DNA of 64,000 nucleotides, taken from the IMG/VR virus record IMGVR_UViG_3300027852_001421. One strand, written 5' to 3'. Within the stretch, counting starts at the first letter, position 1, and each line of letters opens with the position of its first letter. The position numbers and the translations under genes are program-made. The DNA is from a virus. Lineage: Duplodnaviria > Heunggongvirae > Uroviricota > Caudoviricetes. Positions 2,250 through 59,117 of the stretch are shown piece after piece. The notes beneath the pieces were generated by a model, which worked only from the letters and a program-made list of their open reading frames with translations, searched no databases and had not been told where the DNA came from.

Positions 2250-2307
2250 TACAGGAGGGCTCAAATGCCATTTGCCAAAACCCCGGTCGAGGTCCATATT
2301 CACTGAC

Positions 2308-2724: not shown

Positions 2725-2727
2725 ACC

Positions 2728-3273: not shown

Positions 3274-3487
3274 TTCTTGACCTCCCCAATAACATTTCCA
3301 AAATCAGAAACCCGAGGGTCTCATCAGAAAATGCGTCAGCGCCAGGCCTTTACTTAGTGAGGGGTCCGCCGACCCTATCGTTCTCGCATCATCTAGTACG
3401 AAATATTTGTTTCAGCAACACCCAGTGACCCCGGGTGGGGTCTGGCAGGGTGCAGCCATGAAATCCACAGCTGCACCTTCATAGCAC

Positions 3488-8419: not shown

Positions 8420-8611
8420 GCCCTTGGCCCTTGCAGTCATGACACAGTGCAGAAGATAAGTCCGGAAACCCAGATTAAATCTCGGTACGCCACTTGCGAA
8501 AAACACCGAAAGACATATTTTATTACCAGAGAAACGAAACAGATTTTCAGCGTTATGAACTTTCACAAGGTCGACGCAAGATACCACGAAGTCAGATATT
8601 AGGAGCAAGAC

Positions 8612-9874: not shown

Positions 9875-9899
9875 TCGCCAAGTCGATTTGCGAATAAAT

Positions 9900-9926
9900 A
9901 AAGGGGCGGTCTTTACCGCCCCTTTA
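9900..9926 (+). terminator. Rho-independent terminator
   Basis: aaggggcggt-cttt-accgcccctt perfect hairpin plus T-rich tail, 25 nt after the 9874 stop. Confidence 0.7.
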
Positions 9927-9953
9927 TGATCAGACCCGAGAGAGGACCCAGCC

Positions 9954-10691
9954 ATGAATGATACGCGTTTTCTAAAAATTCAGAAGGGCTACCACGATGC
10001 CGGTGGTCTGGTAACGGCCTATGCCATTCAGACAAAACAGCCGATGAGGAACGCCATCAATGAACTGCGCGACGCGGGCATGGTCTATGATTTCGACAAT
10101 GTCCTGAACGAAGGCCTCGCCTTCTCGAAGGTCATGATTGGCAAAGATGGCACCTTCACCGGTGTCCCTTCCGACATCGCCACCCGCGGCGGCACCGAAC
10201 ATGTCATGGCCCAGCCCAGCGAGGTCCGAAAGGTGCTCGCGGATCGCGTGGTCGCTCAACAGCGCATTGATCAGAGTCCATCTGCCAAACGTATCTTCGA
10301 ACAGGCCGCCGACCGCGTGGAGCGCAATGGTAGGCCCCTCCCGATGGGACTTCTAGGGCCCGTCTATGAGCGCGCGGCACGCGTCCTCGAGAAGGAATGG
10401 GAGGCCAGCGGCCGACAAGACAAAGCGGCCTTCCGGTCCGCGAAAGTTCTGATGACACTCGCGGTGACCCATGCGGCAAGCTATGCTCAAGTCGAGAGCT
10501 ACCATGCGGCAAAAAAGATGATGCCCTCGGCATTGCTCAAAAACGCGGCCCGGAAACTGACTGGCCGTGCGGATCCCGAACAAAAGCGTCAGATCTTGGA
10601 TCTGTCGATCTGGTCTGAACCGGATGATCCTTTCAAACCTGAAAAGCTAACCCCTCAAAGCCCAGAGCAGAGCTTGGGTGAGCCTGTCTGA
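9954..10691 (+). CDS. hypothetical protein (245 aa)
   Basis: ORF with good composition immediately downstream of the terminator. Confidence 0.6.
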   Translation: MNDTRFLKIQKGYHDAGGLVTAYAIQTKQPMRNAINELRDAGMVYDFDNVLNEGLAFSKVMIGKDGTFTGVPSDIATRGGTEHVMAQPSEVRKVLADRVVAQQRIDQSPSAKRIFEQAADRVERNGRPLPMGLLGPVYERAARVLEKEWEASGRQDKAAFRSAKVLMTLAVTHAASYAQVESYHAAKKMMPSALLKNAARKLTGRADPEQKRQILDLSIWSEPDDPFKPEKLTPQSPEQSLGEPV

Positions 10692-11625: not shown

Positions 11626-13131
11626 TCAAATGATGAAATTGGCCTCATCAGCCAGATCGCTTTCTTGATCGTCGCCCATCTCTACGAGGAAGCGCTCACC
11701 TGTTTCTTTCAGGCTCACGGAGAACAGCAGCTCGTCATCGATACTCACTTCGCTGATATCAAGATCCGCAAAACTGTCTACGCTCACCCCATTTCCAAAT
11801 TGGATAACGTCTTCTCCAGCTGTGAAATCCTTGATGATATCGAGTTGCGCGTATTTTTCTGTCTCTGTTCCTTCGAGGGAGTCCCAGACCTGCAGGTCGC
11901 CGGCGTCAAAGCGGTAGGTGTCCTTCCCTGCCCCGCCATATAGCGTGTCTGTGCCCGAGCCGCCCGTCAGTGTGTCATTGCCGGTGCCGCCGCGGAGAAG
12001 GTCATCACCGGATCCACCCACGAGATGATCATCTTCAGAGCCCCCGTAGAGCGTGTCATCCCCGGCGCCGCCACGGACTTCGTCCATATCCATACCCCCG
12101 GCCAGGTGGTCGTCGCCATTGCCACCATAGATCGTGTCATTGCCCTTACCTGCATCGACAACATCATCCCCATCACCGGCGCGGAACAAGCCATCTGCAT
12201 CGGGTGTCTTCTGAACATCCCAGATCCAATCATCACCATCGGTGCCAGCAATCGAGTCCTCCGTGTTCTTCATCATGTTCAGGTCTTCATCAAATGAGCC
12301 CTTGGGGACGTAGTTTTGCTGGTCGATGTAATCGACCACTGGCAGTGCAGACAGATCCTCGGGCATTTCAGAGAAATGCGTTTCAGCTCCGGCATGGCGC
12401 GCGCCTTCGAGCGCATAGAGCCCTTTGTCTCCGAGGCGCAGCCATTGCTGGTCGAGATACTCGACCACATCGACGCCTTCAGGAAGATCATGCAGAACCA
12501 GTTCTTGCCCCTCAAGGACGATCACATCGCGGGTGATATCGAAGTCCTCGATGCGACCCAAAATGGGGCTGTTGAGCTGACCGATATTGTCAAACTCGAT
12601 CGTGTCGTTGCCGGTGCCTGTGTAGACATGATGGCCGTCGTAGTTGCTTTCATTGGTCAGATCGAGAACGATGCGATCGTCGCCCTCCCCGCCGCCGACA
12701 TGAACCTGACCGAAACCTGGGATCGAGGAGATAAGCGTATCATCGCCATGGCCGCCCCAAAGCTCGCTGTATCCTTCTGATCCGTCTAGGATGATGATGT
12801 CGTCACCGCCCAAACCGCTGAACCGGTCTTCACCGCCATTGCCGGACATGATGTCTTTTGCGCCAGTGCCCGAGAGACGCTCATCTGCCGAGGTGCCTTG
12901 GATGCGATCACCTGGGATATCACTCTCCAGATCAAGCGTATCGATGACCGCCACACCATCATCGTAGGACCTGATGTCAAAGCCACCCTCTTCCGGGTCT
13001 GGCTGGGTCGGCTCCACTGGGTCCACGGGATCCGGGCGGGAGGGATCCAAGGGTTCAGAGGATTTACTGCTGGATCCGCCACTCATTCCGAAGGCGGCGC
13101 CGAGGCCAAGTAGGATCAATAGGAATTGCAT
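11626..13131 (-). CDS. RTX (hemolysin-type calcium-binding repeat) secreted protein
   Basis: Multiple GGxGxDxL/I nonapeptide repeats (GGNGDDHLAGG..GGAGDDTLYGG..GGSGDDLLRGGTGNDTLTGGSGTDTLYGGAGKDTY). Leaderless acidic C-terminus is consistent with a T1SS substrate. Confidence 0.75.
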   Translation of the reverse strand: MQFLLILLGLGAAFGMSGGSSSKSSEPLDPSRPDPVDPVEPTQPDPEEGGFDIRSYDDGVAVIDTLDLESDIPGDRIQGTSADERLSGTGAKDIMSGNGGEDRFSGLGGDDIIILDGSEGYSELWGGHGDDTLISSIPGFGQVHVGGGEGDDRIVLDLTNESNYDGHHVYTGTGNDTIEFDNIGQLNSPILGRIEDFDITRDVIVLEGQELVLHDLPEGVDVVEYLDQQWLRLGDKGLYALEGARHAGAETHFSEMPEDLSALPVVDYIDQQNYVPKGSFDEDLNMMKNTEDSIAGTDGDDWIWDVQKTPDADGLFRAGDGDDVVDAGKGNDTIYGGNGDDHLAGGMDMDEVRGGAGDDTLYGGSEDDHLVGGSGDDLLRGGTGNDTLTGGSGTDTLYGGAGKDTYRFDAGDLQVWDSLEGTETEKYAQLDIIKDFTAGEDVIQFGNGVSVDSFADLDISEVSIDDELLFSVSLKETGERFLVEMGDDQESDLADEANFII

Positions 13132-19116: not shown

Positions 19117-19971
19117 TCAGACGGACCGCTTCATATGCTTGTACTTCCGATCAAAGCTCGCGAGCTTCGGCAAGTCCATGGCGGCTGGCGACGCGCGCAT
19201 CTTGCCATGATCCAGGAACAGGCTGACAGCACGATCCCGATTGATGATCTTCATCGATTTGTCGTCCTGACGTGGCCCCCAGCCGACCCGCAGCAGATAG
19301 TTCAGCATGGCATCCGGATCGACACCGTCATCGCGGTAGCCCAGAAGACTTGCCGCGGCATCGCGTTTGGACATCTTCTTGCCGTCCATGGTAATCAAGC
19401 CGACATGAGCGAAGTCCGGCATAGGTGCCCCTAAGGCGCTGTAGAGCCCAGCATGGCGGAAGGTATTTGTCAGATGATCCATGCCGCGGATCACGAGGTT
19501 CACTCCAAGATCGATGTCATCGACCACGGAGGCGAAATGATAGACCGGCATGCCGTCGGCTTTGATCAGAACCTGATCACGCGCCAGATCATGCGCCTTG
19601 GCGCTGGGCAGCTGATCGCCGGAAATCAGATCGCTCCATGGCGCTGCCGCCCCACCCTTCATCAACACGGCGCCATTGTCGGCACGCATGGCGAGCCCGG
19701 CATCGAGGAGCTTGGCGGCAGCGGCATCATAGATGTCGCGCCGGTGCGACTGACGGTAGACGGCATCGGGCGCAAGCCCCAACCAATCGAGGCAGTCATG
19801 AATGACGTCGATCGAGGCGTGGTTGTTGCGCGAAAGATCCGTGTCATCGATGCGCAGGATGAAGCGACCGCCACTGGCGCGTGCAGACAACCAGTTGAAA
19901 TAGGCGGTGCGGGCGGTGCCGATGTGAAAGTCGCCTGTTGGCGATGGGGCAACGCGGGTCGTATAGGTCAC
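19117..19971 (-). CDS. gluQ: glutamyl-Q tRNA(Asp) synthetase (truncated GluRS paralog)
   Basis: Class I HIGH region PSPTGDFHIGTARTA and KMSKR motif. About 284 aa, lacking the anticodon-binding domain. GTG start with AAAGGA 9 nt upstream gives an N-terminus colinear with E. coli GluQRS. Confidence 0.8.
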   Translation of the reverse strand: MTYTTRVAPSPTGDFHIGTARTAYFNWLSARASGGRFILRIDDTDLSRNNHASIDVIHDCLDWLGLAPDAVYRQSHRRDIYDAAAAKLLDAGLAMRADNGAVLMKGGAAAPWSDLISGDQLPSAKAHDLARDQVLIKADGMPVYHFASVVDDIDLGVNLVIRGMDHLTNTFRHAGLYSALGAPMPDFAHVGLITMDGKKMSKRDAAASLLGYRDDGVDPDAMLNYLLRVGWGPRQDDKSMKIINRDRAVSLFLDHGKMRASPAAMDLPKLASFDRKYKHMKRSV

Positions 19972-19984
19972 TGTGAAAATCCTT

Positions 19985-20335
19985 TCAGACGCCAATTCGA
20001 TGTGCGTGAGCCTGCAGGTCTTCCGGGTCCGCGATGCGCGAGACGCAGAATGCCATTGGCTCATTGAGAGAAGCCGCAACCAGATCAGGAAACTCGGCTT
20101 TGAGGGTTCGGTATGAGGCCAGGGCTTCTTCATCGAAATACGATCCTGTGTGGACCGATGTGGGCAAGTAATCTCCGGATGTCGGATCAAAGAGGCGTTG
20201 TGCATCATGAGTTGATCTCTGTCGCGTTTGAAGAACCTTGCTACGCATCCATGCAGCTGCTTCACCCCGATCGGGGAAGCGGGGCAGCTCCGGATCTGGG
20301 GAACGTCGTTTGAAACGGCTCAACATGGACAACAT
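19985..20335 (-). CDS. hypothetical protein (116 aa)
   Basis: ORF directly upstream of gluQ on the same strand. Confidence 0.45.
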   Translation of the reverse strand: MLSMLSRFKRRSPDPELPRFPDRGEAAAWMRSKVLQTRQRSTHDAQRLFDPTSGDYLPTSVHTGSYFDEEALASYRTLKAEFPDLVAASLNEPMAFCVSRIADPEDLQAHAHRIGV

Positions 20336-20340
20336 CTTGG

Positions 20341-20416
20341 TCTCCTAAATTTGGCATCCGCAGCGAGGATCGAACTCGCGTCTTCGGGGTGAGGTCCCGG
20401 TATTCTGACCAATTGA
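20341..20416 (-). tRNA. tRNA, probable tRNA-Glu (anticodon CUC) with atypical features
   Basis: Cloverleaf drawn by hand. Acceptor GTCCGCA/TGCGGAT (G1-U72 wobble), D arm GTTC-AATTGGTCA-GAAT, anticodon arm CCGGG-ACCTCAC-CCCGA (C at position 33, one C-A mismatch), T arm GCGAG-TTCGATC-CTCGC, discriminator G, encoded CCA. Total 76 nt. Confidence 0.6.
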
Positions 20417-20429
20417 ACTATGCGGACGT

Positions 20430-20505
20430 GGTGGTGATTTTGGCATCTCCTACGAGTCTCGAACTCGTTTCTGCTGCTTGAAAGGCGACTGTTCTAACCG
20501 GGTGA
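20430..20505 (-). tRNA. tRNA-Glu (anticodon UUC)
   Basis: Acceptor GTCTCCT/AGGAGAT (again G1-U72), D arm GTTC-ACCCGGTTA-GAAC, anticodon arm GTCGC-CTTTCAA-GCAGC, T arm ACGAG-TTCGAGA-CTCGT, G73, CCA. Same architecture as the neighbouring tRNA, 13 nt apart. Confidence 0.6.
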
Positions 20506-20525
20506 ACTAAGGAGACGTAAGGGCA

Positions 20526-21945: not shown

Positions 21946-23223
21946 TCAAGGACAGGGGGCCTCCACGTCTAGGGCTGTCCGTAGGGTGATCTCAACATTC
22001 TCGCGGCAGGGCCCTTCTGATTTGATCTTGAGATCATGCCCGCAAAGACCTGCGATGACCTCGGCGAGGTTCTCGCTGCTAATCTCTGAGACAAAAGGCC
22101 CCTCCCCCATATCCATCACCGAGATCTCGATATTATCGCCCAGCTGATCAAGGCAAGTGACCCCCAGGCCATGATCAATGTCTACGCCCTGCCCTGCGCT
22201 GCGCGCGAGATCGGCCGAGATGATGCGGTCCAACTCTCTGAGATCCAAGGGCGCGTAGCGGATGGCGTCCTGCCATTCGTTTGGCCTGTTGGTGCGGTCG
22301 ATCACCTCGGTGCCAGGCAAGGGTGTCGTTCCGCGGTCGAGCGGGAACGGCCCTGCCCCGTGCCGCGTGGCATAGGCGCGGGTCATGTAGATGATCTCTA
22401 GATCCGTGATCCCGGCGTTTCGGGCGATTTCCACCATGTTCTTGGCGCCCGTATGAGACCGCGTCACATGAGGAAAGACCCCGAGATCCATATCGAGCTG
22501 CAAACCTTGAGCGCCTTCGAAAACCACCGCATCGCGATCGCACAAGGCATCATCCGACATGAGGGAGACAACAGCCCTATATCTGTGCAGATCTTTTGCA
22601 AACCGGCCAGTGAAGCCCGATACATCGCTCAGAACAGGCTTCAGGTGATCTGGGATATCTGTAAGCCCCAAGGCTGCCAGCCGCGCGGGCACCCAGACCG
22701 AGGCGATCTCTCTCAGGCGTGACATCAGGTCTGGCGAGGTAAGGTCCTGCATGGTGAGAGAAGGGCCATTCTCTTGGCGCTCGAGGGTTTCCCCAAACCC
22801 CAGGCCGCAAGAGCCATGTTTATCACCACCGCGGGCAATTTCAGCGGCTTGATTGATGGCCATGTCCCAAGGTGTGGTGATTGGCGAGCGTGGATCGGCT
22901 GTGATTTGCAGATCTCGAACGCCTTTGCGCGCGAGATCCTCCAGCTCCGAAAAGAAGACCATTGGATGGGAGACAAAGAAGCGCGACAGATGCGTGGCCG
23001 CGCCCCGGAAGGATCCGGAGCCGATATGGTGAAATACATGGTGGCGACCGTCGCCCATGGTGACCCCGTGGCCCGCCTGTGCGCCGCCATTGGAGCGCAC
23101 CACGGTCACTTGGCGCCCCTGCTCCACAAGCTGTGCTGTAAGTGCGTCTGTGCCCAGCCCCTTACCTTCATCACCCCAGCCGGCGCCGATGATCCCATAG
23201 ACTTTGCGGATGTCATTTCCCAT
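21946..23223 (-). CDS. adenylosuccinate synthetase (PurA)-family protein, divergent paralog
   Basis: IIGAGWGDEGKGLGTD (PurA P-loop GDEGKGK with the last K replaced by L), GGAQAGHGV (the GGNNAGHT region), VVFEGAQGLQLDMDLGVFPHVTRSHT (the FEGAQG..D.D.GTYP.VTSS region). Confidence 0.7.
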   Translation of the reverse strand: MGNDIRKVYGIIGAGWGDEGKGLGTDALTAQLVEQGRQVTVVRSNGGAQAGHGVTMGDGRHHVFHHIGSGSFRGAATHLSRFFVSHPMVFFSELEDLARKGVRDLQITADPRSPITTPWDMAINQAAEIARGGDKHGSCGLGFGETLERQENGPSLTMQDLTSPDLMSRLREIASVWVPARLAALGLTDIPDHLKPVLSDVSGFTGRFAKDLHRYRAVVSLMSDDALCDRDAVVFEGAQGLQLDMDLGVFPHVTRSHTGAKNMVEIARNAGITDLEIIYMTRAYATRHGAGPFPLDRGTTPLPGTEVIDRTNRPNEWQDAIRYAPLDLRELDRIISADLARSAGQGVDIDHGLGVTCLDQLGDNIEISVMDMGEGPFVSEISSENLAEVIAGLCGHDLKIKSEGPCRENVEITLRTALDVEAPCP

Positions 23224-33403: not shown

Positions 33404-33527
33404 CTCTCCCAGAGATTTGCGGAGCAAACTCGTCGGAGCAACGCGCATCGCTGAAGCGATACGCTGGCTCGCACTTCCTTCGGAAATGCTGCCGCCTGTC
33501 ACTCCCTGACGGGAGTGACTATGCGAA
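33404..33527 (+). repeat. approximately 125-nt intergenic element, copy 1 of 2 (other copy 57469..57593), containing palindrome GCGCATCGC-N4-GCGAT(A/G)CGC and ending in hairpin plus TATGCGAAAA
   Basis: About 85% identity to 57469..57593 over the core ctctcccagagattt...cgctggctc(g/a)cac....ctgtcac. Confidence 0.55.
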
Positions 33528-33969
33528 AATAAAATATGATGATGTATTGTGTTTGCGAAAATCACTATCTATCTAGGTGGTATCAGAGAGGCCCCGGAGC
33601 TCGTAAGAAGAGTCCCGGTCTTTAAAACCGGTTGTCTGGGGGCGGAGCCCAGCGGGGTCACCATCTGAACCGTACTGCGAAAAATGTGGATTGACCTCTT
33701 TACAGTAGATCAAGCATCCCTATATTCAAATCACGATGAACAGAACCCCCCTGCCCCATGCAGGTCACTTGAAAGGACAGATCATGAGCAAGGATTAAAC
33801 CAGCGTCTCACTCCGCACCAAAGACGACACGGCGCCTCCTGGCGACGATGCATATCGTGGGTTTACCCGCGAGCTGAAGACCACCGCTTCACCGTCGAGC
33901 TCCGCTCAGCAGGTTGAAGGCCTCGGTGATGATCTTCGCCTCTATTCCATTCTCAGAACAGATATCACC

Positions 33970-35306: not shown

Positions 35307-35726
35307 ATGACGACGACAGTGACAAAAGCAACATTCCCTACAGTATCTGAAGAGATGAAGGCTGCGGCAGCACGCTACCCCGATTGCCTTACGGCGATGC
35401 TGGAGCTCCAGAAGGCGACCGCCTTCAAGGGTTGGTATACGGTCTCCAACGAGGCCGACCAGTCTGCCTACTTCGCTGACAAGCTCGAGTTGAAAACAAA
35501 GGAAGACTACATCGAGATGCGCGATGCTTTGAAAGCCTGGCTGCGTCTCATGGAGACCACGCAGCGCAGCCTGAAAGAGATGACATCTCGTCCGGGGGAT
35601 CAGTCAGCACCCCAGATGCACAAACACTTCGGGGCAGGTCTGGTGACCCAGCTCATCGAGATCCGCCGCGCGGGTAAGGTTTGGTCTGCGGCTCAGGCGA
35701 AGAGCAAACTCGAAGCTGCGGCATGA
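35307..35726 (+). CDS. hypothetical protein (139 aa)
   Basis: AAAGGAAT 6 nt before ATG 35307. Confidence 0.55.
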   Translation: MTTTVTKATFPTVSEEMKAAAARYPDCLTAMLELQKATAFKGWYTVSNEADQSAYFADKLELKTKEDYIEMRDALKAWLRLMETTQRSLKEMTSRPGDQSAPQMHKHFGAGLVTQLIEIRRAGKVWSAAQAKSKLEAAA

Positions 35727-35764
35727 ATAAGCTGGTGGCGGGCTCTGCCGCCGCCCTAGCGGTT

Positions 35765-36031
35765 TTATGGCTCAACAGGATCTTCGTTCTGATCGGGATG
35801 TGGACCTTCGGCGACATTGTCGCGGCGCTTGAAGTTCGCCGGCTCCAGGTCGGAAAGGATATCGAGGCTCTTGGGGTCGTAGTCCTGATTTCCATCATCC
35901 GGGTGCGGCCTTCCATGCTCAACGTGATCCGTAGAGTATGGCGGTGTATCATGCACTTTGATCAGGCTGGGGTCGTACCCCATCTCTGCATCGTCATCTA
36001 CCGAGGTTTCGGGCTCATCGGATTTGGGCAA
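35765..36031 (-). CDS. small acidic protein (TTG start); C-terminus QNEDPVEP
   Basis: Perfect GAAGGAGG 7 nt upstream of TTG. Acidic, Pro-terminated tail like other ORFans here. Antisense to a plus-strand ORF, so strand assignment is by RBS quality. Confidence 0.45.
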   Translation of the reverse strand: MPKSDEPETSVDDDAEMGYDPSLIKVHDTPPYSTDHVEHGRPHPDDGNQDYDPKSLDILSDLEPANFKRRDNVAEGPHPDQNEDPVEP

Positions 36032-36061
36032 TGTCGTCCTCCTTCGCAGTTCCCGCTGAAC

Positions 36062-36283
36062 TCATGCAACAGCAGGTTTGATCTCTCGTGTCGAATAGGT
36101 ATGCCCTGCCAGATCACGGTTGCGGAAGAACTGGTCCATTGCCCAATCCGGCCGATCCGTGGGGAAGCAGGCAACAATCCTGTTCTTGCCATCTAGGATC
36201 TCGAGCATCACCCGCGGTCCCTCGGCGCGCTCAGGCCCGCCTGCAGGCTCAGCTGTCATCACGGTTTTTCCACCCTTATTCAT
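36062..36283 (-). CDS. small hypothetical protein (73 aa)
   Basis: TAAGG before ATG. Immediately upstream (same strand) of the 35765..36031 gene. Confidence 0.4.
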   Translation of the reverse strand: MNKGGKTVMTAEPAGGPERAEGPRVMLEILDGKNRIVACFPTDRPDWAMDQFFRNRDLAGHTYSTREIKPAVA

Positions 36284-42673: not shown

Positions 42674-44008
42674 TTACAGCTCCGGCAGCGCAGGACCCTT
42701 AAGCTCGCACACCGGAGCCCCAAAGGGGTCCGCCACTGCGCTGTGATCCAAACCCACAGACCTGCCAGCTTCCGAGAAACTTGTCTGAAGTGTTTCGAGG
42801 TCTGCCTCGCTTGCTCCACGGTCCGAGAGCACCCGGCGCCAGCTTTTGCCCACCATGTGGCTCATATCATTGGCAATCTCGATCGCGCGTACCTGAGAGA
42901 CACCAAGGCTGGCGGCACCCATCACAGCATTCTCCAATGTCGCCTCCCGGCCGCAACCCGCCTTACCGAGGTGCATGAAGAGGCTGCGGCTCGTCGAGAA
43001 GCCTGTAGAAGGTGTGACGTCATAGACCGGGCTCGGCTCATAGAGCCCCTGATCGTTCAGCAGAAAGGCATGGTTCCGGTAGTGGTCATCTGTATTGCCA
43101 CATAGGACATTCATGACCATCCGCTTATAGATGGTCTCGCCAGCATCCTCCGCAGCGCCATAGCGGCGCATCCCATCATAGAGGTCCGCATAGCCGGAGG
43201 CGGCCCGGTCCATCTCATGGGCCCCGAGCAGGGTAAGGCCCGAGATCATATGACGCCGGTGGAGCTTGCCGCTCTCATCAGGCTCGCGGTCAAAGCGTTT
43301 CAGAAGCAATGTCGGACGCCCGGCCACATCAATGATGTCGCGTTCGCAAACCGCGAGGCCCGCCATCTCACACAGATCGAGGCAGCCCGCCTCGGCCGCG
43401 GCCATGGTGATGCTGTCGCTCTCGATGCCGAACTTGGCCAACCAGGGATGATCATTGATCGTCACCGTGCCCTTGGGGCGCGCGCCACCCAGATCAGCAC
43501 CGGGTGAAACGTGGTCAAGCAGGTGATCCGGCACATGGCGGCCCGTCTTGAAGGTGTCGACCATCTCCTGAAAAGCCTCGAGCGTGCCGAGATCAGAGGA
43601 GACATCGGGCAGACCCACATCGAGGATTTGACCGGGCCCTTCCGTGGTGGGGCCGAACTGCACACCGCCGATCCGCGTGCCGCGCTGGGAGACCAGGAGA
43701 TACTCGGCCTCGGAGGCATTCCGGCCCTCGGTGCGCTTCATGTAGAGATCGATGAGCTTGCGCCCCCAGGCGTCCGGAGCGGCATCGCGGATCCCGTTAA
43801 ACAGGGTGAAGTCCTCATGGGTGCGCAGATGGTCTTTGCCCAAAGGCATCTGGACGGGGTCGATGGCCACTGCGTCGGGGCGCTCGAGGTACTTGCGGCC
43901 GTAGTCGAAATCTGAGCGCGAATAACGTCCGTCTTCTGTGATTACCAAACGTCCGACCGGTACAGTTTCGCCGTGCAGTTCAAGAAATACGATTGCCTTA
44001 TGTTCCAT
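42674..44008 (-). CDS. hipA: HipA-family serine/threonine kinase toxin
   Basis: HipA N-terminal coupling domain pattern, DLGGARPKGTV, and catalytic NTDDHYRNHAFLL (NxDDHxxN loop). 444 aa. Confidence 0.8.
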   Translation of the reverse strand: MEHKAIVFLELHGETVPVGRLVITEDGRYSRSDFDYGRKYLERPDAVAIDPVQMPLGKDHLRTHEDFTLFNGIRDAAPDAWGRKLIDLYMKRTEGRNASEAEYLLVSQRGTRIGGVQFGPTTEGPGQILDVGLPDVSSDLGTLEAFQEMVDTFKTGRHVPDHLLDHVSPGADLGGARPKGTVTINDHPWLAKFGIESDSITMAAAEAGCLDLCEMAGLAVCERDIIDVAGRPTLLLKRFDREPDESGKLHRRHMISGLTLLGAHEMDRAASGYADLYDGMRRYGAAEDAGETIYKRMVMNVLCGNTDDHYRNHAFLLNDQGLYEPSPVYDVTPSTGFSTSRSLFMHLGKAGCGREATLENAVMGAASLGVSQVRAIEIANDMSHMVGKSWRRVLSDRGASEADLETLQTSFSEAGRSVGLDHSAVADPFGAPVCELKGPALPEL

Positions 44009-46950: not shown

Positions 46951-48102
46951 TTACCTAAAAGCGTCTCGGGATGCCTTGAAGGACGCTACCAGGGCATCAT
47001 GAACCACAGGTTCTGGCGGTGCTTCCCCCTCCTCGCAGTCTCCCCCCAAGCTCACGAGCTCTGAGAGCGCCGCAGAGCGCCCAGGACGGCCCTCAAGACC
47101 AAAGGCGCGGCGCACATCTGCCAAGGTCTCCATGGTGATCACATGGGCGCGTTTGCGGCCCTCCTCGAGGATGTGGGCCACCAACCCTTCGTCAGCTGCG
47201 GCTTCAGCGCGACGCATCCGCATCGGCGCCAACATGTCCTGCAAGATCCCGTCCAAGCGACGCTTCAGAACCATATCGCCGAGCCCGCCGGCGCGGTACT
47301 GATCCTTAAGTTCGGCGACAGCATCGCTGTCCGGATCAAATGCATCGAGCATCGCAAAGACAACATTGCCCTCGACCTTGCCAGGATCAGAGACCTTCAG
47401 GTGACCGGGATCGGTGAACATCCGCAAGACCGCCGCGCGGATCTCCTCCGGGCTGTCGCGGAGCGCGATGGCATTTCCGGCGGACTTTGACATCTTGCCC
47501 GCCCCGTCGATGCCCGGTAGGCGCGGTGCGTTGCTCTGGATCAAGGTCGGGGTGACCAGCACGTTGCGCCCCGCCATGCGGTTTACCTTTCCCGCGATCT
47601 CACTGGTGATCTCCACAAGCGGCGCCTGGTCGGCGCCCGCGGGCACAATGTCCGCGCCAAAGGCTGTGATGTCGGCCGCCTGGCTCACGGGGTAGCAAAG
47701 AAAGCCCGCCGGGGTGCCATCGCCAAAGCCGCGCTGGGCGATCTCCTCACGGATTGTGGGGATGCGCATCAGCCGCGGCACGGTGACCAGGTTCATATAG
47801 AGCATGGTCAGCTCGTTGAGTGCCGGCAGATCGGATTGACGTACGATGGTCACCCGTTCCGGGTCGATGCCGGCCGCAATGTAATCGAGCACCACCTCGC
47901 GCACATTGGCCGCCACATCAGCGGCGCGCCCGGCGTTGTCTGTCAGCGCCTGCATGTCAGCCACCAGAATGGTCACATCGTTCTTGTCCTGCAGAGCGGC
48001 GCGCGCCTGAAGGGTGCCGGCCAGATGGCCGAGATGCAGCGGACCGGTGGGCCGGTCGCCGGTGAGAATGGTTTTGCCTTCGAGGGTCGAGAGATCTTGC
48101 AT
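46951..48102 (-). CDS. trpS: tryptophan--tRNA ligase
   Basis: HIGH-type TGPLHLGHLAG and KMSKS motifs. 383 aa with a C-terminal extension of about 40 aa. Confidence 0.85.
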   Translation of the reverse strand: MQDLSTLEGKTILTGDRPTGPLHLGHLAGTLQARAALQDKNDVTILVADMQALTDNAGRAADVAANVREVVLDYIAAGIDPERVTIVRQSDLPALNELTMLYMNLVTVPRLMRIPTIREEIAQRGFGDGTPAGFLCYPVSQAADITAFGADIVPAGADQAPLVEITSEIAGKVNRMAGRNVLVTPTLIQSNAPRLPGIDGAGKMSKSAGNAIALRDSPEEIRAAVLRMFTDPGHLKVSDPGKVEGNVVFAMLDAFDPDSDAVAELKDQYRAGGLGDMVLKRRLDGILQDMLAPMRMRRAEAAADEGLVAHILEEGRKRAHVITMETLADVRRAFGLEGRPGRSAALSELVSLGGDCEEGEAPPEPVVHDALVASFKASRDAFR

Positions 48103-53575: not shown

Positions 53576-54790
53576 TCAGATACAGTTGCGCCAGGCCAGA
53601 GCAATGGATTGGCGCGCTGCTTCATCCAAGGCGCTCTCCTCACGGAAATTCCCCATAACCCGAGGAGCATCCAAAGAAAACTCCACCTGAGTGGCAGATG
53701 AAAACCTGTCACTCAGACCGATCATCGAGGCCCGGATCAGGATCATATCCCCGTTGTAACGGACATCGAGGTTCCGCCTCGTGATTTTGTGAAGCTGGCC
53801 ATCGATAACGACCTCCACAGCATCGAGCGGCAAATCATCTGGGTTCGGATAGGATGGGGTCCGCAGATCCATTATTATCATCATCATGGGTTTGCGATCA
53901 TTTAAGCAATACATCGTAATTTGCTCCAGCATGGAGTCGGAGCGTCTCGGCTTTGCAGCTGTAACCAGTCCGGTGCTGTAAGGCTCCATAAACCACGCCG
54001 CGAGGCCACTGCCGGAAGCGATGTTGAGCTCATCAATCTCATCCGCTGTGGGGAAGTATAGATCGTTGCTCTGTGTTGAAGATGCAAAGGCGACAACCCG
54101 TGGATCAATACCCATTTCGACAGCATACATGAGGATTTGGCCTGTGATCGCCTGGGCTACTGAGAGCGTGCTGGACCTTATTTGGGCAGCTTGTTCAGCA
54201 GTCACCAGATCGCTGTTATCCTCGCCGCCGCCGTAAAACTGATGGAAGCCCAGGGAGGCGTCATTCGTGGGGTAGTAGGGAGATTCCACAAAGCGTACTT
54301 CCCCGCCTAGAAAAGCATAGGCGCAGGAGCTTGCGCATATGCCGGGCTCGACGCCATCGTACCAGCTATCGCAAGGCGTGTTGTAGCTCTCATGCGTTCT
54401 TTCGGTCCGGCCAATATGTGCGGTGAGCCCGGCCTTCCGAAACAAACGACCCAACTCCAAGCCGGCAGACAGGTTTCCTCCTGGAGAATGCAAAACCAGC
54501 TGGCTCCCGCCCCAACTGCCGCCATCGTCGTTCAGGAATTCCCGGAAGCGGGCTGGTGTGTCTGGCTGAATGACGCCCGTAGCGGCGATCCAAGCTGAGG
54601 TGTTCGAGTTCCCTTTGCTTGTCGCCCAGGAGAACGTCATGGGGGCATCGAAGGCGCCGGGTTCAAGTGCTGCGGGCACTGCGCAGGCATCAGCTTGTTG
54701 CTGTGCAGATGCGCTGGAAGCGGCAAGCGTAAAAAGAACGCCAGCACAGGCTGAAAATACCGTAGTCCCGAGTTTTTCGTATGCGGACAT
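53576..54790 (-). CDS. secreted protein with ClpP/crotonase-fold serine-peptidase-like region
   Basis: Signal peptide MSAYEKLGTTVFSACAGVLFTLAASSASA. LVLHSPGGNLSAGLELGRLF and GICASSCAYAFLGG resemble the ClpP/SppA INSPGG...G.AAS blocks. Confidence 0.45.
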   Translation of the reverse strand: MSAYEKLGTTVFSACAGVLFTLAASSASAQQQADACAVPAALEPGAFDAPMTFSWATSKGNSNTSAWIAATGVIQPDTPARFREFLNDDGGSWGGSQLVLHSPGGNLSAGLELGRLFRKAGLTAHIGRTERTHESYNTPCDSWYDGVEPGICASSCAYAFLGGEVRFVESPYYPTNDASLGFHQFYGGGEDNSDLVTAEQAAQIRSSTLSVAQAITGQILMYAVEMGIDPRVVAFASSTQSNDLYFPTADEIDELNIASGSGLAAWFMEPYSTGLVTAAKPRRSDSMLEQITMYCLNDRKPMMMIIMDLRTPSYPNPDDLPLDAVEVVIDGQLHKITRRNLDVRYNGDMILIRASMIGLSDRFSSATQVEFSLDAPRVMGNFREESALDEAARQSIALAWRNCI

Positions 54791-54944
54791 CACCACATGT
54801 GAAGCTCTACCCAATCTCATCCGGATACCATCCTTTGCAAACAGCCGACCACAGACCCTATAGGGATACAACTATGGCACGCGATGCGGATTATCGATGA
54901 GTTTCTTCGGTATTGCGAAATAATCCCCGTGGAACTTCAGGGAG

Positions 54945-55535
54945 CTATGGTCCCGCCATCTCGATATCGTCATCTTCATCGAGAGAGATGTCGGGCGCAT
55001 CGAAGATCTCTTGCAAGCGTTCCAGCTCGCTGCGCTCTGCAGAGGGTTCAGGTAGGTGGAATGGATCATGAACCTCGTGAGGTGATATCACAATGCCATC
55101 CAGGGCCGAAGCTTTGTCGATCGTCATCATAGCGCGGCGGGTGGCAGTACCGTACAAATCCTTTTCGTGAAAGCCGAACAGGCCCCTCAGACCACCTGCC
55201 TTTTGCACCTCCGATCGCAGTTTTCTCTCCATATCTGTACGTGCGCTTAGATATCTCTCTTGAGAATCCGCAGGGAAGGCGTGATCCTCGTGCCCAGCCA
55301 TTCGGCGCAGGGCACCCCAATGCAAATTCAAGACATCAACGACTTCGACTAGGGCTGGCATGTAAATCGCACCAGTAGCCGCGCGACTGTTAAGTTCCTT
55401 TCTCAACCCCTGAAGCCCAATCAGGCCATGGATTTGGCCACTACAGATATCGATCTCGGCAAGGACCTCATCGATCTGTTCTGTCTGACTAGCATCTGGT
55501 TGCGTCACGGTTTTCTCCGTTCGCAGCAAGGTCAT
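54945..55535 (-). CDS. operon gene A: small acidic protein; paralog of gene D in its body; C-terminal tail LERLQEIFDAPDISLDEDDDIEMAGP
   Basis: ATGA overlap with gene B. Shares about 25 C-terminal residues and about 84 nt of DNA with gene B. Confidence 0.55.
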   Translation of the reverse strand: MTLLRTEKTVTQPDASQTEQIDEVLAEIDICSGQIHGLIGLQGLRKELNSRAATGAIYMPALVEVVDVLNLHWGALRRMAGHEDHAFPADSQERYLSARTDMERKLRSEVQKAGGLRGLFGFHEKDLYGTATRRAMMTIDKASALDGIVISPHEVHDPFHLPEPSAERSELERLQEIFDAPDISLDEDDDIEMAGP

Positions 55536-56209
55536 GGTCCCGCCATCTCGATGTCGTCGCTATCCTCAATAGATACGTCGGGCGCATCGAAGATCTCTTG
55601 CAAACGTTCCAGCACGATGTCCCGAAGCTCGGTCTCGCTCCGCGGCCGCGGAATGTTCGGATGGTGGATCGATTGACCGATCTGCGGAAATTCATCCGCA
55701 AGCTCCACCATGATGGCATCGATGACACTCGCGCGATCATAGACGCCCTCTTCAATGCCCTTCTGGCCAGTGGCGACCAACAGTTTGAAGAAGAACTCCG
55801 CGTGGCGCGCGCCCTGGATGTTGTCCAGCCAGCTGCCGCCGAGTGGCCATTGGCCATAACTGTCGTGGCATTGCTTCATGACCTCATTGGGGTCCAGGCC
55901 CAGGATGACGAACTTCTCCTTCCGGTCCCAGTGGCGCATGAGGCGGTAGTGCAGATCGTACCCTTTCAGGCATCCGTAGCGGCTCTCGTCCAGTGCGGCT
56001 TCACGGATACGCGTTCCACAGTTCTTTGCTGAGGTTTCGAAGTCTTCACCGTAGCCACTGGGAGCAAAATCCGGGTCTGAAACTTGCTCGTAGAAACCAG
56101 TATCCAACACCGCCCCGCCGCGCGAAGTGGATCTGCAGATGATCGTATCTGCAAAGTCATCCAGTGTACGTTTGCCGGGCGAATAGTATTTCTTGGAAAG
56201 CTGCATCAT
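55532..56209 (-). CDS. operon gene B: unrelated body carrying the same C-terminal tail LERLQEIFDAPDVSIEDSDDIEMAGP
   Basis: DNA 55534..55617 is about 85% identical to 54947..55030. Confidence 0.55.
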   Translation of the reverse strand: MMQLSKKYYSPGKRTLDDFADTIICRSTSRGGAVLDTGFYEQVSDPDFAPSGYGEDFETSAKNCGTRIREAALDESRYGCLKGYDLHYRLMRHWDRKEKFVILGLDPNEVMKQCHDSYGQWPLGGSWLDNIQGARHAEFFFKLLVATGQKGIEEGVYDRASVIDAIMVELADEFPQIGQSIHHPNIPRPRSETELRDIVLERLQEIFDAPDVSIEDSDDIEMAGP

Positions 56210-56210
56210 T

Positions 56211-56825
56211 TCAGGGCTCCATTTCGCAGTCGTCGTCTTTGTCGCAGCTGTCCTCAGGAGAACCTCGGACAGGGCGCCAATCTTCGCGCAGGCCCTTCTC
56301 CATCAGTTCAATGCTGTCCCAGCCATCAAGCCTGACCAGGTAGCTAATCTCCCGATCATCGAAGTCGCCAAAGCTCGTGCCACGGGGAAGCATATGGTCT
56401 TTTTGGAACTGCTTTGGATGTTCCAGCCATTTCTCGACTTTGAGGGCAACGGCCGCGAGGGACTTGTGGAAACCTTCCTTGTCGTGGATCTCTTCGCCGT
56501 TGCGATTAGAGAACTTGCTGAAGGCCTCACCGACAATGGTGTCGACCTTATCAAGTAGGATTGCCGAGGTCAGATACATCTCGATCTTGCCCTTGGGATC
56601 GTGCCCCGCTGCCAGAGCATTCCAGGCCGCGCCCTCATCGAAGCGGCGGCCTTCCAGACCCTCAAATGTTCCGAGCTTCCCGGCATCCCGGGCGCGCTGC
56701 ATCGCTTTCACGACGAGCTCTTCACGCGCGCAGCGGTGCAGGTAGACTCCGAAGGTCCGATCATAGGCGTGCTCATGATCGAAGATCGGGTCGAAGAAGG
56801 CCTTGGTGATGAGTCTATCGGTCAT
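56211..56825 (-). CDS. operon gene C: hypothetical protein; C-terminus DSCDKDDDCEMEP
   Basis: 1-nt gap to gene B and 6-nt gap to gene D. Confidence 0.5.
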   Translation of the reverse strand: MTDRLITKAFFDPIFDHEHAYDRTFGVYLHRCAREELVVKAMQRARDAGKLGTFEGLEGRRFDEGAAWNALAAGHDPKGKIEMYLTSAILLDKVDTIVGEAFSKFSNRNGEEIHDKEGFHKSLAAVALKVEKWLEHPKQFQKDHMLPRGTSFGDFDDREISYLVRLDGWDSIELMEKGLREDWRPVRGSPEDSCDKDDDCEMEP

Positions 56826-56831
56826 ATCAGA

Positions 56832-57341
56832 TCACCAGGCCGGGCTGTCGTAGTCAGGTCGGGTATGCTCTGCAGAGATCTTTGGCCGACCAAAAGGATC
56901 GCTGACACTCAGCGGCGCGCACTTGATGTCCGTGTATCCGCAGGCTTTCTCAATGGCTAAGATGGCGCGCTCCGCGATGTCCTGTCCGGCGTTCTTCTTG
57001 TGCAGGCCGAGGACCCCACGAATTCCGCTGGTCTTTTGAATCTCTTCTTTCACTCCAGAGGCAATCTCATCCCGGGCCGCGAAGCGACGCTCAACCCCAG
57101 CCTGGGCCTCATCTGAGATCTCAGAGATGCCGCGCCTGTCTTGCATGCCGAGATAGGAATGCTGGGACTCAATCGCGGATTTGATTTCCGACAGGGTTTT
57201 GACATCGATCGGTCCAGTGACCTTTTCGACGCCGACAAGCAGGCTGACATCGAGAAGGCCCTCGATTTGGCCTTGGCAGACATCAAGCTCTGCCATTGTC
57301 TCTCGGATACGGGCGGTCTTGCTGCGGAACGGGTTTTTCAT
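56832..57341 (-). CDS. operon gene D: paralog of gene A body (no DIEMAGP tail)
   Basis: TAGGAG 8 nt before ATG 57341. ELDVCQGQIEGLL and IRGVLGLHKKN blocks align with EIDICSGQIHGLI and LRGLFGFHEKD of gene A. Confidence 0.55.
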   Translation of the reverse strand: MKNPFRSKTARIRETMAELDVCQGQIEGLLDVSLLVGVEKVTGPIDVKTLSEIKSAIESQHSYLGMQDRRGISEISDEAQAGVERRFAARDEIASGVKEEIQKTSGIRGVLGLHKKNAGQDIAERAILAIEKACGYTDIKCAPLSVSDPFGRPKISAEHTRPDYDSPAW

Positions 57342-57402: not shown

Positions 57403-57658
57403 GTGGCTCTCGCACATCCCAAGAGATGTGCTGCCACCCTCACTCCAGCTCCGCTGAAGTGAGTATGCCTCTCCCAGAGATTTCCGGAGGAAACTCGTCG
57501 GAGCGACGCGCATCGCTTATGCGATGCGCTGGCTCACACCTCCATCCGGAGGTGTTGCCGACTGTCACACTGACTTCGCCAGTATGACTAGGCTCTCGCA
57601 CATCTAAAGAGATGTGCTGCCGCCCTCACTTCAGCTGCGCTGGAGTGAGTATGCGAAA
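57403..57658 (+). repeat. two about 68-nt direct repeats (57403..57470 and 57590..57658), each with two hairpins, flanking copy 2 of the 125-nt element (57469..57593)
   Basis: ggctctcgcacatc(cc/ta)aagagatgtgctgcc(a/g)ccctcact(c/t)cagct(c/g)cgctg(a/g)agtgagtatgc, about 90% identical; the second copy ends in TATGCGAAAAA. Confidence 0.55.
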
Positions 57659-57822
57659 AATCGTTGACCGGATGTAATCTCTGGCTTACATAGGCCTCAT
57701 GATGAACATGATCGCCTCCACCACGACGACAACAACCACCCATCCCGGGCGGAGCGTTGTCGTGTGAGTTGATCGGATCAACATACCAGACTTTGAACCC
57801 CGCCACCGACGCGGGGTTTTTT
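57652..57822 (+). promoter_or_regulatory. thrS-paralog leader: TGCGAAAAA motif, sigma70-like promoter TTGACC-17-TACATA, leaderless 22-codon leader peptide with 7 consecutive Thr codons (57699..57767), intrinsic terminator (57798..57822)
   Basis: ATG ATG AAC ATG ATC GCC TCC ACC ACG ACG ACA ACA ACC ACC CAT ... TGA; ccccgc-caccgac-gcgggg followed by tttttt, 45 nt before the thrS-like ATG. Confidence 0.6.
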
Positions 57823-57866
57823 ATTGTCTCGCGTCCAATCTGACACCCCTCAAAAGGACCAAGACA

Positions 57867-59117
57867 ATGAATGAGAACAGCCCCCAAGACCTGAATATTC
57901 CACAAGAGCAAGGCATGGACCCGCTGGACCATCGCGTGCTCGCGCGCCGCCTCGATCTCTATCACATCGAGGAAGATGCCCCGGGCATGATCTACTGGCA
58001 CTCTGCCGGCTGGCAGATCTACCGCGAGCTCGAAGACTACATCCGCGGCCGCATGCGCAGCCTGGGCTACGGCGAGGTGCGTTCGCCGCAGCTGCTGCCC
58101 CAGTCCCTCTGGGAGGCGTCAGGTCACTGGGAGAAGTTCGGCGAGAACATGTTCGCAGTGCCGGCGCGCGAGGAAGGCGGCCGGGACATGGCACTGAAGC
58201 CTATGAGCTGCCCCTGCCACCTGCAGATCTTCAACTCCGACCTGCGTTCCTGGCGTGATCTGCCGATGCGCATTGCCGAGTTCGGCCAGTGCCACCGCGA
58301 TGAGGCTTCTGGATCGATGCACGGGTTGATGCGCACCAAGGCCTTCGAGCAGGACGATGCCCATGTGATATGCGATGCCGATCAGGTCCGCGGCGAGGTG
58401 GCGCGTTTCGTTGAGCTGCTGAAGGAAGTTTATGCCGCCTTGGGTTTTGCCGATTTTGAAGTGGCGCTGTCGCTGCGCCCCGAAAAGCGTGCCGGCAATG
58501 ATGCAGATTGGGATCACGCGGAAAAGGAACTGCTGGAAGCGGCCCTCTCCTGCGGGCTCGACCCGAGGCTGCAGCTCGGCGAAGGCGCCTTCTACGGGCC
58601 CAAACTGGAGTTCGCGCTGCGCGACAAGAAAGGCCGTTCCTGGCAGTGTGGCACCATCCAGCTCGATATGGTCCTGCCGGGCCGTCTGGACGCCTCCTAT
58701 GTTGGTAAAGACGGCGCTAAACATGTGCCGGTCATGCTGCACCACGCGGTGCTGGGATCCCTGGGGCGCTTTATCGGCATCCTTCTTGAGCATTGTGAAG
58801 GCCGCCTGCCCCTTTGGTTGGCACCGGTGCAGGTGGCGGTGCTGCCAATCGGGGACGACCAGCGCGACGCCGCAGTTGCGGTCATGGATCAGCTGCGCGC
58901 GGCGGGGCTGCGCCCTGCCCTTTTTGATCAGTCCGAAGGGCTCGGCCGCCGGATCGTCATGGTCCGCGATCAGTTGATCCCGGTACAGATCGTGATTGGC
59001 AAACGGGAGGTGGAGCGCGGCGAAGTGATGCTGCAGATCGGCGGAGGCAAAGAGGCGCTGTCGTCGGCCGCGGCCATCGCGCGGCTGGATGAGCTTGCCG
59101 GGGTGCCGAAGGGGTGA
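57867..59117 (+). CDS. thrS: threonine--tRNA ligase paralog lacking the N-terminal TGS and editing domains (catalytic core plus anticodon-binding domain only)
   Basis: Begins about 20 residues before DHRVLARRLDLYHIEEDAPGMIYWH, which aligns with E. coli ThrRS from about residue 243. Class II motifs FRELE..IR, PMSCPCHLQIF, AEFGQCHRDEASGSMHGLMRTKAFEQDDAHV, GEGAFYGPKLEF and HHAVLGSLGRFIGIL all present. 416 aa versus about 640 for the full enzyme. Confidence 0.8.
   Translation: MNENSPQDLNIPQEQGMDPLDHRVLARRLDLYHIEEDAPGMIYWHSAGWQIYRELEDYIRGRMRSLGYGEVRSPQLLPQSLWEASGHWEKFGENMFAVPAREEGGRDMALKPMSCPCHLQIFNSDLRSWRDLPMRIAEFGQCHRDEASGSMHGLMRTKAFEQDDAHVICDADQVRGEVARFVELLKEVYAALGFADFEVALSLRPEKRAGNDADWDHAEKELLEAALSCGLDPRLQLGEGAFYGPKLEFALRDKKGRSWQCGTIQLDMVLPGRLDASYVGKDGAKHVPVMLHHAVLGSLGRFIGILLEHCEGRLPLWLAPVQVAVLPIGDDQRDAAVAVMDQLRAAGLRPALFDQSEGLGRRIVMVRDQLIPVQIVIGKREVERGEVMLQIGGGKEALSSAAAIARLDELAGVPKG

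Follow-up and report, generated by a model that had tools for sequence, protein, structure and literature searches.

A probable chimeric gene shares its C-terminal tail, a candidate docking peptide, with an unrelated neighbour in an ORFan-rich element

The window analysed here is a 64,000-nt stretch of DNA (IMG/VR record IMGVR_UViG_3300027852_001421), and its subject is a group of four minus-strand genes, D, C, B and A, at positions 54,945 to 57,341. By sequence comparison, A is a chimera of a D-family body (residues 1 to about 170) and a B-family tail (the last 26 residues). The explanation that we consider best as a whole, with a probability of about 0.6, is that A is a young chimera and that the B tail that it carries ends in a putative docking octapeptide, DDIEMAGP.

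Structure of the locus and kinship of its genes

An earlier note, made from the letters of the window, had described the four genes as a closely packed operon, and their coordinates, strand and spacings were confirmed in the list of open reading frames (ORFs). D and C are 6 nt apart, C and B are 1 nt apart, and the end of B overlaps the start of A by 4 nt (ATGA; a spacing of -4 nt). The features on which the argument depends are the following.

56832..57341, minus strand: gene D, 169 aa from an ATG (ORF list)
56211..56825, minus strand: gene C, 204 aa, acidic, ending ...DKDDDCEMEP
55532..56209, minus strand: gene B, 225 aa, conserved core of the locus and native owner of the tail
54945..55535, minus strand: gene A, 196 aa from an ATG that overlaps the stop of B
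55534..55619, minus strand: repeat copy 1, the last 26 codons and stop of B, encoding LERLQEIFDAPDVSIEDSDDIEMAGP and the stop
55033..55533, minus strand: body of A between the repeat copies, 501 nt, absent from the sampled relatives L001, L018, L019, L023 and L012
54947..55032, minus strand: repeat copy 2, the last 26 codons and stop of A, encoding LERLQEIFDAPDISLDEDDDIEMAGP and the stop

All four products had been called small and acidic, which holds for A, B and C (isoelectric points (pI) of 4.8, 4.8 and 5.1) and not for D, which is near neutral (pI 6.0). No significant profile or fold match was obtained for A, B, C or D in Pfam, NCBIfam, PADLOC, PDB sequences or PDB/BFVD folds.

Self-BLAST of the window returned just three repeats, among them the direct repeat 54947-55032/55534-55619 (E=2.8e-20), which is 86 nt long, 85% identical and holds a 27-nt perfect block. 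Read as codons, it comprises 26 codons and a stop common to A and B, in agreement with the original description of two unrelated proteins that have the same 26-residue end. The two copies differ at 1 of 36 nt in the LERLQEIFDAPD block, at 9 of 18 nt in a 6-codon linker and at 1 of 24 nt in the DDIEMAGP codons.

A and D are paralogues over their bodies, as had been proposed, with 32% identity over 161 aa (E=4e-24; Smith-Waterman z=37). Once the tail is removed, no significant similarity is left between the bodies of A and B (z=2.4; 17 of 500 shuffles reach the score), and none was found between D and B (shuffle z=-0.25). Because the A and B bodies are unrelated without the tail, their similarity being confined to the 86 nt, a whole-gene duplication, which the earlier note had named among the findings that would refute its claim, is excluded. 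In the A/D alignment, A tracks the D family as far as ...DPFxxPxxSAE, where B sequence replaces the D-type end ...HTRPDYDSPAW; the conserved C-terminus of D is ...RPDYDSPAW. The G+C content at third codon positions (GC3) is 0.56 in A and 0.66-0.70 in B, C and D, and this lower value, together with an identity to D of just 32%, shows that A did not arise by recent local duplication of D.

One other relation between A and B was considered and set aside. An old C-terminal domain common to both was raised by a BLASTP alignment that reached upstream of the tail and was non-significant on shuffling. A possible 'RSE' match with a 21-nt deletion upstream of the A/B tail is unproven.

Origin of gene A

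In the five A-less relatives listed above, the B tail runs straight into the flank that in the window follows the A tail. The window from 55032 to 53066 (A tail, flank and a 414-aa gene) is collinear with L023 from 1538 to 3506 (B tail, flank and 414-aa gene) at 84.5%, and the repeat copies bracket the 501-nt A body in the order repeat-insert-repeat. The A tail is itself a mosaic: its conserved blocks are nearest to the window's own B (2 of 60 nt differ, against 4-11 among orthologous alleles), and its linker, an allele of the L018/L023 type, differs from that type at 4 positions and from the B of the window at 9. As read from these alignments, the arrangement of tail and body in A is the product of one recombination event that duplicated the last 86 bp of B. 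Parsimony favours a gain of A in the window lineage, because A is lacking in five others, among them L019, the closest relative, and L012, the outgroup.

B stops with TGA in the window and with TAG or TAA in relatives, hence the ATGA overlap with A. An alternative start of A, a GTG at 55508 with GGAG 6 nt upstream, aligns with Met1 of D, and this GGAG is located 27 nt downstream of the B stop; the inserted A ORF probably brought its own start.

In our reading the ancestral unit is D-C-B, which lies beside a truncated ThrRS under the control of a Thr attenuator. The replicon is large and rich in ORFans, and its hosts are uncultured marine bacteria, probably Alphaproteobacteria. According to the sequence comparisons, a diverged ORF of the D family with its own GGAG-GTG start was fused in one lineage, in frame, to the 26 terminal codons of B. 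An 86-bp direct repeat was left on each side of the A body, B retained its tail, and A dropped the D-type end (...PDYDSPAW) and took on the B-type end.

The events may have run in the reverse order, with D-C-B-A and its two tails ancestral to the clade, A lost from the relatives by deletion between the 86-bp repeats, and the chimera old. We regard this as unlikely, if deserving real weight. Deletion of A with the crossover before or after the linker would yield both linker alleles, L018/L023 resembling A and L001 resembling B; both alleles of the A-less genomes come with the flank downstream of A, and L001 is clearly a deletion derivative at the adjoining 414-aa gene. Against this, at least three independent losses would be required, one of them in L019, which is closest to the window by D, C and the body of B (89.6%), and A is absent from the outgroup L012 as well. 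The conserved blocks of the two repeat copies are also nearer to each other than orthologous alleles are, by the counts given above, so that the copies would be either young or homogenised by conversion. A gain of A in the window lineage is therefore the order retained below.

The surrounding interval, between the ThrRS and PLD genes, is an indel hotspot, with D, A and the 414-aa gene each variable between genomes. Variable features of it besides D and A are listed here.

53576..54820, minus strand: 414-aa ORF with an N-terminal signal-peptide-like segment, a presence/absence gene of the locus
57405..57654, no strand assigned: second repeat-flanked insertion, 64-nt repeats around a 122-nt segment

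L001 and L023 have no D, and L012 has no 414-aa gene. In L001-type genomes the 414-aa gene is cut to its last ~180 nt (L001/L003 10688-10864, corresponding to window 53576-53752), a 3' remnant that is called as a 56-aa ORF in L003, and these genomes are deletion derivatives. The 64-nt repeats (57405-57468 and 57591-57654, 91% identical) lie between D and the ThrRS gene, ~2 kb from A; L019 has one copy of the repeat and no 122-nt insert.

Ownership of the tail

Orthologues of B were found at 40-100% identity in six other lineages, and every one that is at least 84% identical ends in ...EMAGP, also in genomes without A, where B closes the unit (L001-L006, L018, L019/L020, L023 and L032). D orthologues of 168-170 aa occur in L012, L019 and P0012-P0015. 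When a profile of A and D was run exhaustively with HMMER against 1.84 billion representative proteins, just five clusters were obtained, namely A, D and three of 168-170 aa that end in ...SPSW, ...DRLEL and ...LDPG, and on none of the four D-family clusters other than A was the acidic tail present in this set.

Searches with the tail itself gave a similar picture. The back-translated DIEMAGP-stop pattern occurred, within real ORFs of 241 million metagenome records, in B orthologues only; IMG/VR held no match to it and likewise none to B. By tblastn against the window and all fetched loci the tail matched A and B only. A tail profile search of a 5.8-billion-protein index, which returned 5 candidates with no scores attached, was uninformative. 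The tail is, judged from its distribution, native to B and grafted once onto a D-family body, because close B orthologues carry it even where A is missing and the other D-family clusters are without it. The earlier proposal of a transferable tag thus stands as to a graft from B onto the unrelated D/A family and falls as to recurrence: in the collections scanned the exact tail is on B orthologues and A only, and it is not a widely mobile or recurrently transferred tag.

Selection and structural models

The ratio of nonsynonymous to synonymous differences (pN/pS) in B was calculated from five alleles by pooled Nei-Gojobori counts. It was 0.14 in the body, 0.11 in the helix end, 0.67 in the linker and 0.07 in the terminal octapeptide (octapeptide pS 0.63). 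The last 8 residues of C gave 0.05 against 0.18 for its body, and those of D 0.23 against 0.42.

In the AlphaFold2 (AF2) model, B is all-alpha; the residues LERLQEIF close its last helix (190-208), and residues 210-225 are disordered, the tail after the helix having a predicted local distance difference test (pLDDT) score <50. A is modelled as a four-helix bundle followed by a low-confidence helix (166-179) and a disordered end, similar to B at lower confidence, and D is predicted to be helical from this four-helix-bundle model of the A/D family. The C-terminal module of B comprises, in order, a helix end (LERLxEIFDxPD), a free 6-residue linker and a disordered acidic octapeptide, DDIEMAGP-COOH.

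The allele comparison indicates that DDIEMAGP is under strong purifying selection in B. Short linear motifs classically show this combination of a near-neutral linker and a constrained, disordered end, and the tail looks functional on this pattern and the models. Overlap with a ribosome-binding site was considered as the cause of the terminal residues: the final codons of C, ATG GAG CCC TGA, include the GGAG ribosome-binding site of B, so that it is a partial explanation for C ...MEP only, and it fails for the B tail because most genomes have no gene closely after B.

We therefore favour, as a working model, a reading in which the octapeptide is a putative linear docking motif whose free C-terminus would be read by a partner. 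After the tail swap, the D-like helical bundle of A would be recruited to the partner of B instead of that of D. The B tail would also belong to a broader, composition-defined class of acidic, Pro-terminated ends.

Acidic C-termini across the element

Several other ORFans of the window had been listed as ending in similar acidic tails (9874, 16502, 24781, 23804, 2728, 35765, 37461, 40245 and 44857), and all of these ends read back correctly; they have composition in common with one another, not sequence. Enrichment of such ends was measured in the window and at the loci of its relatives. For the window, 69 genes were taken from a codon-usage model and their ends compared with interior windows of the same proteins; other lineages were scored on deposited gene calls, and 56 annotated coding sequences of the Dinoroseobacter shibae plasmid pDSHI01 served as the control.

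In the window, the net charge of the last 10 residues is <= -3 in 15 of 69 proteins (p=9e-4; 8.8% of interior windows reach this value). Of the 69 proteins, 13 end in Pro, which has a frequency of 5.0% (p=4e-5), and PxP-COOH occurs in 5 of 69 (0.42% expected; p=1e-5). Counts for the other sets were as follows.

L013 (syntenic relative): acidic ends 10/20 (p=1.5e-6), Pro ends 4/20, PxP ends 3/20
L015 (contig labelled Cereibacter sphaeroides): acidic ends 6/20, Pro ends 11/20, PxP ends 8/20
L037 and L038: Pro ends 4/10
Control pDSHI01 (Rhodobacterales plasmid): acidic ends 3/56, Pro ends 3/56, PxP ends 0/56

Fisher tests against the control plasmid gave p=0.008-0.02 for the window, 7e-6 for Pro ends in L015 and 3.5e-5 for acidic ends in L013. 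Each of the five L038 proteins ends in an acidic, Pro-rich stretch, and L015 (GCA_021389875.1 JAIRAS010000116.1, 1-15533) encodes an RtcB homologue with the acidic end ..DEDAAPGF. The enrichment suspected in the earlier note was thus borne out for the window and the loci of its relatives, which is the scope of these counts: acidic, Pro-terminated ends are over-represented in the element family.

The Pro ends of the window use four Pro codons and all three stops, so that the bias is at the level of amino acids, and a DNA-level motif behind them was rejected for the window on these mixed codons; in L015 they are mostly CCG-TGA. Neither composition nor a DNA motif nor the ordinary gene ends of Rhodobacterales account for the bias. 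Bacterial C-termini in general show K/R enrichment and a taxon-dependent Pro bias (PMC7246954), and the acidic, Pro-ended pattern is unusual but not unprecedented in kind. The neighbours of B are mutually unrelated between lineages, yet have similar ends, such as EMEP on C of the window and on a 224-aa protein of L038, and terminal flavours recur within a genome (EMAGP/EMEP in the window, EPGM/GPGM in L013, PxP in L015). L013 genes 1 and 2 were tried as diverged forms of D and C and showed no detectable homology.

Gene calling affects such counts. The choice of the longest ORF picks the wrong strand at 8357-9955 (-), where the codon-usage model prefers 8612-9874 (+) (score 124, end ...DDEPEEEDVFEA); the model also prefers 35765-36031 (-), with the end ...QNEDPVEP, over 35681-36196 (+). 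Because longest-ORF lists take the wrong strand, naive lists under-count acidic tails.

From these sequences it is plausible that the C-termini serve a common docking or recognition function, and we take the class-wide bias to point to a common reader of C-termini rather than to chance. A much bolder form of this idea, which we hold to be improbable, is that a replicon family of marine and freshwater Alphaproteobacteria tags a fifth to half of its proteins with an acidic, Pro-ended address peptide that is read by a putative dedicated receptor. Its lineage flavours would be [D/E]n...P-x-P, E-P, EMAGP and EPGM, its role would lie in export, packaging, compartment targeting or turnover, and A and B would be a case of the tag caught moving between families.

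The tails may instead be caps that protect or solubilise proteins in a generic way and have no specific reader, and the A tail a neutral scar. Disordered acidic bristles would then be favoured on mobile-element proteins, with the terminal Pro as a defence against carboxy-terminal proteolysis or recognition as a C-degron. We think this unlikely, though it fits a good deal of what was seen: the families have only composition in common, the motif drifts fast between lineages, A is present in a single genotype, and D, A and the 414-aa gene vary in an indel hotspot. C-terminal residues of bacterial proteins are also known to affect expression, with a Pro bias that differs by taxon (PMC7246954). What the cap leaves unexplained is specificity, since the exact octapeptide is constant in the B clade through many synonymous changes beside a free linker, which is more specific than a compositional cap, and since unrelated neighbours converge on the terminal residues, as in the flavours listed above.

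An export or translocation signal is a further alternative, and a doubtful one. The acidic tails would be signals of E-block, other type IV, type I or other secretion, the coupling protein would come from another part of the replicon or from the host, and A would have become a substrate. The tails are indeed C-terminal, disordered, acidic and defined by composition, occur on many unrelated proteins and are conserved at the very end; basic patches of Legionella DotM bind acidic, Glu-rich C-termini (PMC5802825); and the RTX protein at 11626-13131 has a classical D-x-x-hydrophobic end. But no component of a type IV secretion system (T4SS), type I secretion system (T1SS) or other secretion system was found in the 64-kb window or 6 kb beyond, 20-55% of all genes would need to encode substrates, and housekeeping-type enzymes have tails too (a PurA-like protein of the window and, in L015, the RtcB homologue). 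E-block signals, moreover, have no terminal Pro. The element family is tied to Rhodobacterales-like hosts, and to our knowledge T4B systems are not typical of such hosts. The link with Dot/Icm E-block signals that had been raised tentatively for these tails found no support and stays an analogy.

Finally, the selected feature could be translational, with [D/E]-Pro-stop as a slow termination context for termination-reinitiation coupling or regulation. This we consider very improbable. It would suit the strong preference for Pro at -1, the mostly CCG-TGA ends of L015, which several times overlap the next start (GTGA, ATGA), and an element that encodes aminoacyl-tRNA synthetases, tRNA-Glu and PTH2, with RtcB in the related L015. 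In E. coli, moreover, a C-terminal Pro is reported to stall termination (Hayes 2002, cited in PMC7246954). Left unexplained are the acidic run 3-10 residues upstream and the conserved D-D-I-E-M-A-G before the Pro; many Pro-ended genes are not closely followed by another, and the window draws on every Pro codon and every stop.

Weight of the evidence and significance

A young chimera with a docking tail is still the reading that we prefer, and the following points weigh against it. A is a single clonal genotype: the 2,581-nt stretch from A to D is identical in four contigs, and a fifth A-bearing contig, which covers 2,079 nt of the operon stretch, has 1 nt different; the A-bearing contigs come from several samples. 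With A in one genotype the fusion could be neutral, and an in-frame join is expected by chance in 1/3 of cases. The polarity may be the reverse, since both linker alleles would also result if L001 and L018/L023 had lost A by repeat-mediated deletion. The pooled pairwise pN/pS values are phylogenetically non-independent and the tail regions are short, and the GGAG for B inside the end of C accounts for part of the terminal constraint in C. The motif of B is kept only in the clade of at least 84% identity, with ...EPGM at 77% and ...GPGM at 68%; at 40-50% identity the end differs again (...TPDP, ...VMEP and others), and there is no deep motif. The class-wide statistics are partly post hoc and come from about 130 genes and one 56-gene control.

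If this reading is right, the locus would be a base-pair-level case of a mobile element rewiring a protein by a swap of its C-terminal peptide alone, with the pre-event state kept in relatives. DDIEMAGP-COOH is a concrete 8-residue peptide, and the constraint on it would predict a binding partner. Should a common reader exist, it would constitute a new C-terminal recognition system and offer a handle on dozens of ORFans. A relative with B at 49% identity in the Cereibacter sphaeroides-labelled assembly GCA_021389875.1 may make experiments possible.

Neighbouring features and genetic context

Consensus scans of the sequence 3' of A and inspection of other parts of the window gave the following features.

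54924..54943, minus strand: weak terminator-like hairpin directly 3' of the A stop (consensus scan only)
54919-54890, minus strand: promoter-like site for the next gene, after the hairpin 3' of A (consensus scan only)
11626-13131, minus strand: RTX protein with calcium-binding repeats

The window is rich in ORFans and carries a truncated ThrRS, a TrpRS/TyrRS-type synthetase, a GluRS/GlnRS-like gene and two tRNA-Glu genes, together with a PurA/PurZ-like synthetase, PTH2, NUDIX/NrtR, HipA, the RTX protein, Band_7 and a GIY-YIG nuclease. The 64 kb contain no phage structural hallmark and no secretion apparatus, and neither megablast nor tblastn gave a match to known phages or plasmids. Relatives lie on contigs of up to 375 kb, and distant B homologues occur in Rhodobacter- and Cereibacter-labelled assemblies. 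The gene content looks more plasmid- or chromid-like than phage-like. In L034, genes for a SorA-like molybdoenzyme and a cytochrome c lie just past the right end of the window. Genes of toxin-antitoxin type include HipA in the window (42674-44008, minus strand) and PIN/PhdYeFM and HTH-HipA in L012 (1138-1796 and 11106-12826).

Upstream of the ThrRS-like gene (57867-59117) lies a threonine-attenuator-like leader at 57699-57826 (+). It comprises a 22-codon ORF (57699-57767), encoding MMNMIASTTTTTTTHPGRSVVV and a stop, with seven consecutive Thr codons, followed by a GC-rich hairpin and T-run at 57795-57826. The match to Rfam Thr_leader is weak (22.9 bits, E=0.059), and the leader is nearly invariant in four lineages. 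A truncated accessory ThrRS under Thr-codon attenuation is unusual. At 19117-20516 (-), a truncated GluRS/GlnRS-like gene (382 aa, tRNA-synt_1c) adjoins tandem tRNA-Glu genes (CTC, TTC), and a TrpRS/TyrRS-type gene lies at 46951-48102; with the ThrRS these are the element's own decoding components.

The 64-nt repeats at 57405-57654 form two hairpins each around the 122-nt insert. The first 100 nt of the insert recur at 33404-33502 (86%), within the region 33404-33530, and the two copies show compensatory stem changes (cacctcc/ggaggtg and cacttcc/ggaaatg). No Rfam match was found for the insert and repeat structure, and the insert may be a small structured RNA or belong to a family resembling miniature inverted-repeat transposable elements (MITEs).

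The gene at 21946-23223 (-) encodes an adenylosuccinate-synthetase-like protein whose best PHROG is the PurZ-annotated phrog_1211 (5e-55) and which shares 36% identity with the PurA/PurZ proteins of large Rhizobium phages; it may be PurA or the diaminopurine (Z-genome) enzyme PurZ.

Comparison with known systems

In function, the nearest parallels to the tail are the acidic tail of T7 gp2.5, the SSB tip and the DotM-bound E-blocks, and it departs from all three in defining features. Legionella Dot/Icm effectors have Glu-rich E-block C-termini that are bound by DotM (PMC5802825). As in that system, where a basic receptor surface reads the signal, the ends described here are acidic, defined by composition and carried by many unrelated proteins; A and B, with 9-10 D/E in the last 16 residues, resemble E-blocks by composition only. 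They differ from E-blocks in their terminal Pro and in that the tailed proteins include enzymes unlikely as effectors, and no Dot/Icm coupling complex (DotL/DotM/DotN) was found among the Pfam/PHROG matches of about 75 window ORFs or the flanking genes in L034. As to type I secretion, A to D contain no HemolysinCabind repeats, no ABC/MFP genes were seen in the window, and its sole RTX protein is unrelated to A-D and ends in ...EANFII. Several proteins end in ...PEP or ...MEP, as in PEP-CTERM proteins, but no transmembrane helix follows, and A to D have no signal peptide.

The acidic tails of phage T7 end in an aromatic residue, and the T7 gp4 helicase-primase has a tail comparable to that of T7 gp2.5, which binds the same polymerase. 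The acidic tail of T7 gp2.5 binds both T7 gp5 (DNA polymerase) and T7 helicase (PMC4124056). The tail of A and B is likewise acidic, flexible and C-terminal, which in T7 makes a docking peptide for partners of the same element. Unlike those of T7, it ends in Pro, its owners have no recognisable fold or family where the T7 owners are known replication proteins, and it is common to two proteins through DNA duplication, not convergence.

In bacterial single-stranded-DNA-binding protein (SSB), the C-terminal tip (…DDDIPF) is a hub-binding linear motif on a disordered linker, and its free carboxylate is read. B has the same order of folded domain, poorly conserved disordered linker and short conserved acidic tip, and the D-D-(D)-I core makes DDIEMAGP similar to DDDIPF. 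In contrast to SSB, B is all-alpha and A a four-helix bundle in the AF2 models, with no oligonucleotide-binding (OB) fold and no SSB Pfam match; the last residue is Pro, not Phe, and the B motif is conserved in a narrow clade only.

Mosaic genes of phages and plasmids arise by illegitimate or short-homology recombination, for example in the cassette shuffling of T4-type hyperplastic regions. The history proposed for A would be of this kind, with an ORF inserted into a hypervariable locus in one lineage, direct-repeat flanks and a new in-frame fusion; a second repeat-flanked insert is found 2 kb off. It would differ from mosaic cassettes in that the repeat is a coding 3' end, so that a functional C-terminal peptide, rather than a regulatory cassette, would have been duplicated.

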